Below are positions 5,150 through 59,695 of a stretch of DNA of 64,000 bases, piece by piece (within the stretch, counting starts at the first letter, position 1; every line of letters starts with the position of its first letter). The stretch comes from Escherichia coli. Lineage in GTDB: Bacteria > Pseudomonadota > Gammaproteobacteria > Enterobacterales > Enterobacteriaceae. The stretch lies in the NCBI RefSeq assembly GCF_003334815.1, contig NZ_QOWO01000015.1. The stretch is one strand, 5' to 3'. The notes beneath the pieces were generated by a model that made no database searches, was not told where the DNA came from, and worked only from the letters and a program-made list of their open reading frames with translations. A program made the position numbers and the translations under genes.

Positions 5150-6358
5150 ATGGCCTTTTCTCAAGCGGTTAGCGGATTAAACGCTGCCGCCACCAACCTC
5201 GATGTTATTGGCAACAATATCGCCAACTCCGCCACCTACGGCTTTAAATCAGGCACGGCCTCTTTTGCCGATATGTTTGCCGGTTCGAAAGTGGGACTGG
5301 GGGTAAAAGTTGCCGGTATCACTCAGGACTTTACCGATGGCACGACCACCAACACCGGGCGAGGTCTGGACGTTGCTATCAGCCAGAACGGTTTTTTCCG
5401 TCTGGTAGACAGCAACGGTTCGGTGTTCTACAGCCGTAACGGACAATTTAAGCTGGATGAAAACCGTAACCTGGTGAATATGCAAGGTTTACAGCTGACG
5501 GGTTACCCGGCAACCGGTACGCCGCCGACTATTCAGCAAGGGGCGAATCCGACCAATATTTCGATCCCGAATACCCTGATGGCAGCGAAAACTACCACCA
5601 CGGCATCGATGCAGATCAACCTGAATTCCAGTGATCCGCTTCCTACTGTTACGCCATTCAGCGCCAGCAATGCGGATAGCTATAACAAAAAAGGTTCGGT
5701 GACTGTTTTCGACAGTCAGGGTAATGCTCATGACATGAGCGTCTACTTTGTGAAGACCGGGGATAATAACTGGCAGGTCTACACCCAGGATAGCAGTGAT
5801 CCAAACAGCATTGCGAAGACAGCGACAACACTGGAATTTAATGCTAATGGCACATTAGTGGATGGTGCGATGGCGAATAATATCGCAACCGGCGCAATTA
5901 ACGGTGCAGAACCCGCCACGTTTAGTCTGAGCTTCCTCAACTCCATGCAGCAAAATACCGGCGCTAACAATATTGTGGCAACCACCCAGAACGGCTACAA
6001 ACCGGGCGATCTGGTGAGTTATCAAATCAATGATGACGGTACGGTTGTCGGCAACTATTCCAACGAACAAACCCAACTGCTGGGGCAGATTGTACTGGCG
6101 AACTTTGCCAACAACGAAGGTCTGGCATCCGAAGGCGACAACGTCTGGTCTGCGACGCAATCTTCTGGCGTGGCGCTGTTGGGGACAGCCGGGACGGGAA
6201 ACTTTGGCACCCTGACCAACGGTGCGCTGGAAGCGTCCAACGTCGATCTCAGTAAAGAACTGGTCAATATGATCGTTGCCCAGCGTAACTATCAGTCTAA
6301 CGCCCAGACCATCAAAACCCAGGACCAGATCCTCAACACGCTGGTTAACTTACGCTAA
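5150..6358 (+). CDS. flgE: Flagellar hook protein FlgE, 402 aa
   Basis: 402-aa ORF with conserved rod/hook N-terminus (ANNIANSATYGFK) and C-terminus (VNMIVAQRNYQSNAQTIKTQDQILNTLVNLR). Confidence 0.95.
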   Translation: MAFSQAVSGLNAAATNLDVIGNNIANSATYGFKSGTASFADMFAGSKVGLGVKVAGITQDFTDGTTTNTGRGLDVAISQNGFFRLVDSNGSVFYSRNGQFKLDENRNLVNMQGLQLTGYPATGTPPTIQQGANPTNISIPNTLMAAKTTTTASMQINLNSSDPLPTVTPFSASNADSYNKKGSVTVFDSQGNAHDMSVYFVKTGDNNWQVYTQDSSDPNSIAKTATTLEFNANGTLVDGAMANNIATGAINGAEPATFSLSFLNSMQQNTGANNIVATTQNGYKPGDLVSYQINDDGTVVGNYSNEQTQLLGQIVLANFANNEGLASEGDNVWSATQSSGVALLGTAGTGNFGTLTNGALEASNVDLSKELVNMIVAQRNYQSNAQTIKTQDQILNTLVNLR

Positions 6359-7133: not shown

Positions 7134-7159
7134 TTGAAAGGATACATGACAAGTATAAG

Positions 7160-7262
<103 letters not shown>

Positions 7263-7286
7263 AAGACATATGCACTTTGTCACTAA

Positions 7287-8087
<801 letters not shown>

Positions 8088-8139
8088 GGCTTAACCGGTG
8101 GCAGGTTCACCGGTTTACTGATTTTTGAAGATGATAGCC

Positions 8140-38262: not shown

Positions 38263-38271
38263 ATGCCCTCG

Positions 38272-38390
38272 TCGCATCAGGTAACCTTGCCGGTACCTGA
38301 TGCGCTCCGAATTCTGTGGGTCGGATAAGGCGTCCACGCCGCATCCGACAGTCGAGCATCAATGCCTGATGCGCTTCTTATCAGGCCTAC
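38272..38390. repeat. BIME with three REP palindromic units downstream of ycfP
   Basis: CGCATCAGGTAACCTTGCCGGTACCTGATGCG, TCGGATAAGGCGTCCACGCCGCATCCGA and GCCTGATGCGCTTCTTATCAGGC. Confidence 0.8.
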
Positions 38391-38511
38391 CGAACGCCCT
38401 GCATACACCCCTCACTCTATATCACTCTCACAAATTCGCTCAAATAATAAACAATAAACTCTGTTTTTTGATCTCACCCGGTAAAGTCGCCTATCTTTTC
38501 AGCAACAAAAC

Positions 38512-39966: not shown

Positions 39967-39980
39967 TCGACGTACACTGG

Positions 39981-40010
39981 CGGATGTGGCATAAACGCCT
40001 CATCCGCCCT
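39981..40010. repeat. REP-like hairpin downstream of ndh
   Basis: GGCGGATGTGGCATAAACGCCTCATCCGCC imperfect palindrome. Confidence 0.4.
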
Positions 40011-40175
40011 TGAGGAACAGCGCGATCGGCAGCCGCGTTGTATCAGGCATCCTTTCAGACTCCTCCGAATCCTTAAGTATTTCCAGCCATTCCCGCGCTT
40101 TTCATCTTCTGTCTGATAGCTGCTTTTCTCCTTCGCTTGCATGATTGGCATAACTGCAAAGAAGGAGGTGTTCCC

Positions 40176-52096: not shown

Positions 52097-52936
52097 ATGC
52101 TGTCGCGTCGGGGTCATCGGTTAAGTCGTTTTCGTAAAAATAAACGCCGCCTGCGCGAGCGTTTGCGTCAGCGTATTTTTTTCAGAGATAAAGTGGTGCC
52201 GGAAGCAATGGAAAAACCAAGAGTACTCGTACTGACAGGGGCAGGAATTTCTGCGGAATCAGGTATTCGTACCTTTCGCGCCGCAGATGGCCTGTGGGAA
52301 GAACATCGGGTTGAAGATGTGGCAACGCCGGAAGGTTTCGATCGCGATCCTGAACTGGTGCAAGCGTTTTATAACGCCCGTCGTCGACAGCTGCAGCAGC
52401 CAGAAATTCAGCCTAACGCCGCGCATCTTGCGCTGGCTAAACTGCAAGACGCCCTCGGCGATCGCTTTTTGCTGGTGACGCAGAATATCGACAACCTGCA
52501 TGAACGCGCAGGTAATACCAATGTGATTCATATGCATGGGGAACTGCTGAAAGTGCGTTGTTCACAAAGTGGTCAGGTTCTCGACTGGACAGGAGACGTT
52601 ACCCCAGAAGATAAATGCCATTGTTGCCAGTTTCCGGCACCCTTGCGCCCGCACGTAGTGTGGTTTGGCGAAATGCCACTCGGCATGGATGAAATTTATA
52701 TGGCGTTGTCGATGGCCGATATTTTCATTGCCATTGGCACATCCGGGCATGTTTATCCGGCGGCTGGGTTTGTTCACGAAGCGAAACTGCATGGCGCGCA
52801 CACCGTGGAACTGAATCTTGAACCGAGTCAGGTTGGTAATGAATTTGCCGAGAAATATTACGGCCCGGCAAGCCAGGTGGTGCCTGAGTTTGTTGAAAAG
52901 TTGCTGAAGGGATTAAAAGCGGGAAGCATTGCCTGA
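52097..52936 (+). CDS. cobB: NAD-dependent protein deacylase CobB (sirtuin), long form 279 aa; internal ATG at 52208 gives the short form
   Basis: 279-aa ORF with Arg/Lys-rich N-terminal extension ([37 protein letters not shown]) preceding [24 protein letters not shown]. Confidence 0.9.
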
Positions 52937-53026
52937 TGCACTACGCTTATCAGGCCTGCAAGGGGACGCAATTAATTGAATTTGCGGGTTTTGTGGGCCG
53001 GATAAGGCGTTCGCGCCCCATCCGGC
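52931..53026. repeat. REP pair (BIME) between cobB and ycfZ
   Basis: GCCTGATGCACTACGCTTATCAGGC and GGGCCGGATAAGGCGTTCGCGCCCCATCCGGC. Confidence 0.8.
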
Positions 53027-53055
53027 ATAATACACGCGCACTTTTCCGGCCTCTT

Positions 53056-59655: not shown

Positions 59656-59680
59656 GGATGCGGCATGTGATGCCGCATCC
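59656..59680. terminator. Shared hairpin between convergent pepT and roxA
   Basis: GGATGCGGCA-TGTGA-TGCCGCATCC 10-bp stem, REP-like, 9 nt after the pepT stop. Confidence 0.5.
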
Positions 59681-59695
59681 GGCTTAAATCCAAAC

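Follow-up and report, generated by a model that had tools for sequence, protein, structure and literature searches.

Seven REP/BIME repeats in a 64-kb segment of the Escherichia coli chromosome, including a strain-variable and dispensable copy between flgF and flgG

REPs are the most abundant repeat of E. coli, and their mRNA-stabilising role has been textbook knowledge since malE-malF. These short, non-autonomous palindromes spread and rearrange within intergenic DNA, and they persist mainly just downstream of stop codons. In the literature the mobilising agent is the RAYT/TnpA-REP transposase, for whose binding non-complementary stem bases are a requirement; its gene lies outside the region studied here, where we infer mobilisation of the same kind. 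REP units can be combined into BIMEs, and the BIME-1 type is defined as a z1 unit, a long L linker, often with an IHF site, and a y unit, present in single copy (PMC3333891). At the RNA level, Rho-dependent transcripts are trimmed by PNPase and RNase II back to stable hairpins, many of which are REPs (PMC6061677). REP325, in yjdM-REP325-yjdN, was described as both a partial Rho-dependent terminator and an upstream stabiliser, and REP-containing tandem gene pairs show a genome-wide bias to the upstream gene (bioRxiv 10.64898/2026.03.23.713779).

We analysed a stretch of 64 kb from E. coli (the window), which is 99.98% identical to positions 1,127,425-1,191,423 of K-12 MG1655, the differences being 13 substitutions and one inserted base. 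Its gene order is yceM, murJ, flg operons, rne, fab cluster, ptsG, hinT-ycfP, ndh, mfd, lolCDE, cobB, potABCD, pepT, phoPQ and purB. REP names and coordinates were taken from Table S16 of bioRxiv 10.64898/2026.03.23.713779; the copy of NC_000913.3 that we used carries no repeat_region features. The initial annotation, made from the letters of the window, had reported five REP clusters. All five are present in the sequence and coincide with REP100, REP101, REP102, REP104 and REP105, but the window holds seven annotated loci, and REP103 and REP106 had been overlooked (Table 1). By our estimate, the numbering of the preprint table points to about 355 REP loci in the 4.64-Mb genome; 64 kb should then hold about 4.9 of them, so that seven loci represent an ordinary density, close to the genome average. 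A search of the whole window with Rfam at gathering thresholds gave only the rne 5' UTR element (rne5) and SraB, with no REP family there. The elements of the window are seven ordinary and already catalogued members of the REP/BIME family, REP100 to REP106, and as such they have little significance beyond correct annotation.

Table 1. REP loci annotated in the window and the units, linkers and palindrome found in and beside them (window positions unless marked MG1655)
Feature	Position	Strand	Genes or description
REP100 (annotated)	7163-7260; MG1655 1134587-1134684		flgF>flgG
REP100 unit 1	7162-7189	+	degenerate z1-type, GCCCGATGCG...TTATCGGGTCTAT; CTAT for CTAC; -10.7 kcal/mol
REP100 L linker	7190-7225		BIME-1 long linker; IHF-like AATCGATAAATTG, minus strand 7201-7213, 1 mismatch to WATCAANNNNTTR
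REP100 unit 2	7226-7259	+	canonical y-type, 5' GTAG; scan score 64 of 68; -20.9 kcal/mol, z -4.1
REP101 (annotated)	18505-18579		rluC / yceF
REP101 unit 1	18504-18537	+	GTTG + GCCTGATAAGGCG...CATCAGGC; -22.8 / -23.8 kcal/mol on the two strands
REP101 unit 2	18552-18578	+	short y-like hairpin GCCGGATG...CATCCGGC; no GTAG/CTAC
38273-38304 palindrome (REP-derived)	38273-38304	+	two facing REP head halves CGCATCAGG / CCTGATGCG; perfect 11-bp stem; -20.6 kcal/mol, z -6.3
REP102 (annotated)	38317-38391		ycfP>ndh
REP102 y-type unit	38316-38349	+	GTGG + GTCGGATAAGGCG...CATCCGAC; -17.4 kcal/mol
REP102 z1-type unit	38364-38390	+	CTAC end; -10.4 kcal/mol
REP103 (annotated)	39980-40009		ndh>ycfJ
REP103 y-like unit	39979-40008	+	GGCGGATG...CATCCGCC; -21.7 kcal/mol, z -6.5
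REP103 second (z2) unit remnant	40031-40048	+	17-nt deletion in K-12 and window
REP104 (annotated)	52932-53027		cobB / ycfZ
REP104 unit 1	52931-52959	+	z1-type, CTGC foot
REP104 L linker	52960-52992		BIME-1 L linker; IHF-like ATTCAATTAATTG, minus strand 52969-52981
REP104 unit 2	52993-53026	+	y-type, GTGG foot; -20.0 / -24.9 kcal/mol
REP105 (annotated)	59661-59684		pepT / roxA
REP105 hairpin	59656-59684		perfect 11-bp hairpin; half-REP GCCGGATGCGGC on minus strand; between pepT and roxA
REP106 (annotated)	63158-63180		purB>phoP
REP106 hairpin	63157-63179	-	short REP-like hairpin GCCGGATGGCGATGCTGTCCGGC; -16.8 kcal/mol; upstream of phoP

Assignment to the family was examined with a local-alignment scan using the published y, z1 and z2 consensus sequences. 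The scan gave 10 positive bins in the window and none in any of 60 dinucleotide-preserving shuffles. Unit 2 of REP100, unit 1 of REP101, both units of REP102 and both units of REP104 were recovered as canonical units, with REP103 in addition, while the degenerate units at 7162-7189, 18552-18578, 59656-59680 and 63157-63179 fell under the scan threshold and yet have GCCGGATG / CATCCGGC arms. On whichever strand or strands are transcribed, every unit forms a hairpin, with energies from -10 to -25 kcal/mol and z mostly below -3. The 132-nt cluster at 38264-38395 finds at least 40 matching places per genome in all 5,426 complete E. coli genomes, which identifies a dispersed repeat family rather than local palindromes. 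Consensus matches, hairpins, high copy number and coincidence with annotated loci thus bear out the REP/BIME identity proposed in the initial annotation.

The units also resemble known E. coli REP/PU sequences (y, z1, z2) and BIMEs in finer features: they are imperfect palindromes with an internal mismatch and, in some of the units, a GTAG/CTAC foot; they lie in intergenic DNA at the 3' ends of genes, and their number varies between strains. The foot tetranucleotide is exact at 7226-7229 (GTAG) and 38387-38390 (CTAC), deviates by a single base in five units (CTAT, GTTG, GTGG twice and CTGC), and absent from the second unit of REP101, REP103, REP105 and the 38273-38304 palindrome. Every y and z unit folds with an internal loop of 2+2 or 1+1 bases, which is missing from the perfect hairpins formed by REP105 and by the palindrome at 38273-38304. 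All units are intergenic, save that the start of REP104 covers the final two codons of cobB. From the described family they differ in nothing essential; several units are degenerate, and the palindrome at 38273-38304 lies outside annotated REP102.

This palindrome belongs to the cluster between ycfP and ndh, for which three REP units had been claimed at 38272-38390. Two of them are canonical REPs, but the third is a non-canonical palindrome made from facing head halves. Within the window REP102 consists of a y and a z1 unit with a 14-nt linker, and the fold of the complete 3' region of ycfP has an energy of -60.3 kcal/mol (z -4.9). Judged by sequence, REP102 and REP103 fit best as atypical BIMEs, since neither shows the tandem amplification of BIME-2. 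The cluster at 38273-38390 would cap the hinT-ycfP operon and shield the promoter region of ndh. The REP102 cluster is full in 5,182 of the 5,426 genomes and missing in about 244. In the one REP102-lacking genome that was examined, a 69-nt deletion between direct CCTGATGCGC repeats has turned three hairpins into one, with the z1 head of REP102 as one of its end points. Such a deletion could stem from RAYT action or, just as well, from slippage between the 10-nt direct repeats. Other genomes carry an 8-nt insertion in the z1 unit of REP102, which makes it z2-like. The end points of the 69-nt deletion (window 38296-38374) lie at CC|TGATG, and this is the published type-I TnpA-REP cleavage motif in z-type inverted REPs (PMC3333891).

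By their sequence REP100 and REP104 are BIME-1 elements whose linker holds a putative IHF site. The two align end to end, including a homologous linker of 33-36 nt (CGCAATTnATnGAnTTTGCG), and like described BIME-1/RIP/RIB elements each has z1 and y units in inverse orientation and a single copy per locus. REP100 differs from the described elements in that it lies inside an operon, not at the end of a transcription unit, and in that its z1 unit is degenerate (GCCCGATG, CTAT). At REP104, about 590 genomes (11%) match only up to the z1 unit. In one of these, 20R2R (L091:651-860), z1 is the sole REP unit, and the L linker and the y unit have been lost; a 1-nt insertion moves the cobB stop six codons earlier, ycfZ-ymfA is absent, and potD lies directly next. 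Base 53026, an A in MG1655, is a C in the window, which re-forms the G-C pair that closes the y unit of REP104.

Of the remaining loci, REP101 lies between the convergent genes rluC and yceF. REP103 is y-like in the window, and 3,784 genomes fall into a class of 80-90% identity; two members of this class were aligned, and both keep an intact GTAG-z2 unit, GTAGGCCTGATAAGACGCGTTAAGCGTCGCATCAGGC, so that the y-like unit with an intact z2 is probably the majority allele. A single REP unit had been claimed at 59656-59680. The hairpin is there and is annotated as REP105, but it covers just one half of a REP consensus; CTTTTCGCTT follows it on the minus strand, giving a terminator-like arrangement for roxA. 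Near REP101, we observed one extra A relative to MG1655 at window position 18864, in yceF (minus strand, 18587-19172), which splits this gene for an m7GTP pyrophosphatase into ORFs of 122 and 108 aa and is either a real strain frameshift or a sequencing error.

In order to place these elements on the transcription map, we compared their positions with gene orientation. Three REPs are located between convergent genes, three after the last gene of a unit, and one, REP100, inside the flgB-J operon; none of the seven loci in the window lies between divergent genes. The idea that the clusters mark operon boundaries thus agrees with six of the seven loci, each placed at the 3' end of a transcription unit. 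Of the eight convergent junctions, however, five are without a REP, and REPs are therefore not general boundary markers. No U-tract or intrinsic-terminator pattern was detected at REP100, REP102 or REP103, and the only loci to match a simple pattern of this kind were REP105 and REP106, weakly and on the minus strand. All seven REP loci overlap or adjoin in vitro Rho-binding regions in the preprint table. The region at the ycfP 3' UTR, which encloses the cluster at 38272-38390, is on the sense strand (1165684-1166064), and the entry 'YES 1165699-1166036' there is taken to be the in vivo Rho-dependent set, the meaning of the column being assumed. For REP100, the portion of the preprint table at hand records the Rho-binding region on the antisense strand.

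Read densities agree with the published trimming to hairpins and upstream bias. They were calculated from the published DESeq2 means of the same preprint, which mix wild-type and mutant samples and were normalised by gene length only; on this scale ycfP has 9.5 reads per nt and its upstream neighbour nagZ 3.7 (2.5-fold), and ndh has 6.0 and its downstream neighbour ycfJ 1.0 (6.2-fold). These steps are consistent with termination or stabilisation, with internal promoters or processing as alternative sources. We consider it highly probable, at roughly 85%, that the window holds ordinary REP/BIME members together with hairpin-protected, Rho-dependent transcript 3' ends. On this reading, a transcribed REP unit would form a G+C-rich hairpin without a U-tract, and transcription of the upstream unit would end by Rho-dependent termination in or just past the element. 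The 3'-to-5' exonucleases would then trim the RNA to the hairpin and leave a protected 3' end, exonuclease blocking being what we infer for these loci, and read-through into the next gene would be lowered by the REP element. In the Term-seq data of Adams et al. 2021, a 3' end is listed at MG1655 1166025 on the + strand (window ~38602), 60 nt before the ndh ORF begins. This end falls within the Rho-binding region, about 210 nt past REP102, and could come either from transcription stopping early in the ndh leader or from ycfP read-through that ends there. A search for the seven loci by gene name and coordinate prefix among the rows listed of that supplement returned unrelated rows apart from 1166025.

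The distance between REPs and stop codons suggests a different effect, on translation. A REP that starts at most 15 nt from a stop codon may reduce translation of the gene before it by making the ribosome stall as it terminates; the passage of PMC12306157 that cites Liang et al. 2015 gives an effect on upstream translation only for REPs <16 nt from the stop. In the window, the gap from stop to hairpin is 8 nt for yceF and pepT, 10 nt for ycfP, 12 nt for ndh, 13 nt for purB, 15 nt for roxA and 28 nt for flgF and rluC, and the cobB stop codon (TGA, 52934-52936) falls within the stem of REP104 unit 1. The gaps would therefore suit ycfP, ndh, cobB, pepT, roxA, yceF and purB, but not flgF or rluC. 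Against this effect, the hairpin next to ycfP is not a canonical REP, and the read density of ycfP is above, not below, that of its upstream neighbour, although this is a measure of RNA and not of protein. Ribosome stalling is a tentative explanation, on the doubtful side, for these sequence distances.

The copy between flgF and flgG varies between strains. As the initial annotation had proposed for 7160-7262, it sits in the spacer between two genes of one operon, REP100 lying within flgB-J with unit 2 ending 45 nt before the flgG start codon. Among the 5,426 complete E. coli genomes, 3,477 (~64%) carry the BIME-1 allele. In 1,944 (36%), among them O157:H7 EDL933 (L003:395-531, compared with window 7134-7304), a BoxC/TMECO repeat stands in place of REP100. 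The core of this allele, CCCTCGCCCCTTTGGGGAGAGGGTTAGGGTGAGGGG, equals TMECO no. 7 and no. 11, type A mm, in Table 1 of PMC4666352; it is built of a C-rich block, a loop and two G-rich blocks (CCCTCNCCC...GGGNGAGGG...GGGNGAGGG). The BoxC/PIT/TMECO repeat, an intrastrand-triplex type, thus matches the O157-type spacer; it does not occur in the window and is unrelated to REP in sequence. It is found dispersed over the genome, at a median of 15 places. Outside E. coli, about 70 of 77 other Enterobacterales species (one genome per species) have a spacer of 8-31 nt, and that of Citrobacter consists of the same 13 nt (TACAGGACATTTT) as the end of the E. coli spacer. E. albertii has the BIME-1 with a collapsed y unit, which dates the insertion before the split of E. 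coli and E. albertii. A BIME-1 would then have entered a flgF-flgG spacer of normally about 13 nt in an Escherichia ancestor. In Enterobacter sp. ENT03 the spacer (L026:1361-1500) carries a 140-nt insert with the core CACCCCAGTCACTTACTTATGTAAGCTCCTGGGGATTC, which we take to resemble the ERIC/IRU consensus and which would then be a third repeat family at this site.

Variation of this kind would be expected if REPs were nothing more than selfish or neutral DNA, tolerated where harmless and leaving the genes beside them without measurable change. Four of the seven loci, which vary extensively in whether the element is present or in how many units it has, point in this direction, as does a flgF-flgG spacer that accepts BIME-1, BoxC, the ERIC-like insert of an Enterobacter species and even an expression cassette. 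Against this stand REP101, REP105 and REP106, which are essentially fixed (5,419-5,425 of 5,426 genomes), the published genome-wide expression bias to genes upstream of REPs, and the expectation that stable hairpins in 3' UTRs affect exonucleolytic decay (PMC6061677). We regard a complete lack of effect as unlikely.

We further considered REP100 as a selected device, whose hairpins would stabilise flgBCDEF over flgGHIJ mRNA and so set the ratios of rod and hook proteins. REP100 is transcribed within flgB-J, and the spacer forms a stable fold on the mRNA strand (-59.2 kcal/mol, z -3.9); no promoter-like or terminator-like site was found in the flgF-flgG spacer. In public RNA-seq, read density per nt, by the gene-length-normalised means of mixed samples described above, rises from 31 at flgB to 60 at flgF and then falls to 39 at flgG, 14 at flgH and 8 at flgJ. 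The 1.55-fold step down at flgG goes in the direction predicted for an excess of flgBCDEF over flgGHIJ transcripts, but a bigger step of 2.8-fold follows at flgG-flgH, which is free of REPs. In the rod, moreover, FlgG is needed in larger amounts than FlgF; an upstream bias would run the other way, which counts against a selected device. The mechanism itself is established in malE-malF (cited in PMC6061677) and in yjdM-REP325-yjdN. REP100 resembles these systems in being transcribed between two genes of one operon, with a density biased upstream and the same proposed mechanism, and the BIME-1 is old enough to be common to E. albertii. It differs from them in the small size of its step and in that many strains lack the element or carry a replacement. 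The spacer where the largest drop occurs, flgG-flgH (8088-8139), is 52 nt long with no REP, and it is natively longer across Enterobacterales (median 61 nt).

Genetic tolerance of the site weighs against such a device as well. An expression cassette has been integrated between flgF and flgG, and W3110(T7) was still motile (PMC11515702). We also entertained, and dropped, the view of flgF-flgG as a special hotspot selected to hold a hairpin: the flgE-flgF spacer is expanded equally often (6 of 77 species), so that the flgF-flgG junction is permissive and not special, with no sign of special selection. From comparative and published data, REP100 is dispensable at flgF-flgG. Since it is replaced in more than a third of the genomes, since spacers are short in other species, since the site tolerates a cassette and since the larger drop is free of REPs, a required stoichiometric role is not supported, and a selected device seems improbable. 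Differential stabilisation by REP100 is possible but modest, by a mechanism already known; the element would give at most a modest excess of flgBCDEF over flgGHIJ mRNA.

A role at the DNA level, in which REP100 and REP104 would serve as IHF sites and the others as gyrase or Pol I sites organising supercoiling domains between transcription units, appears similarly improbable: both BIME-1 linkers hold, in the same register, an IHF-like site one mismatch off WATCAANNNNTTR, and L linkers frequently have an IHF site while REPs bind IHF, Pol I and gyrase (PMC3333891), but a model REP gave neither chromosome compaction nor REP-REP contacts (bioRxiv 10.64898/2026.03.23.713779), the L linker appears to be lost at REP104 in about 11% of genomes, and the whole BIME is lost at REP100 in 36%.

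The preferred reading, ordinary REPs at Rho-dependent, hairpin-protected 3' ends, leaves REP100 as the copy inside an operon. For this copy we also considered that the flgF-flgG spacer acts as a strain-variable regulatory dial, the BIME-1 and BoxC RNAs giving lineage-specific ratios of hook/proximal-rod to distal-rod/ring transcripts. We hold this to be very unlikely; if true, it could contribute to differences in flagellation, for instance between K-12 and O157:H7. The spacer, dimorphic in E. coli (BIME-1 or BoxC) and short in other genera, offers natural allele pairs for gauging the effects of intra-operon repeats. In E. albertii NBRC 107761 (L017), an ORF scan of the same region gave flgF and flgH frames of 166 and 138 aa, compared with 251 and 232 aa, which suggests that the two genes are flagellar pseudogenes in this strain.
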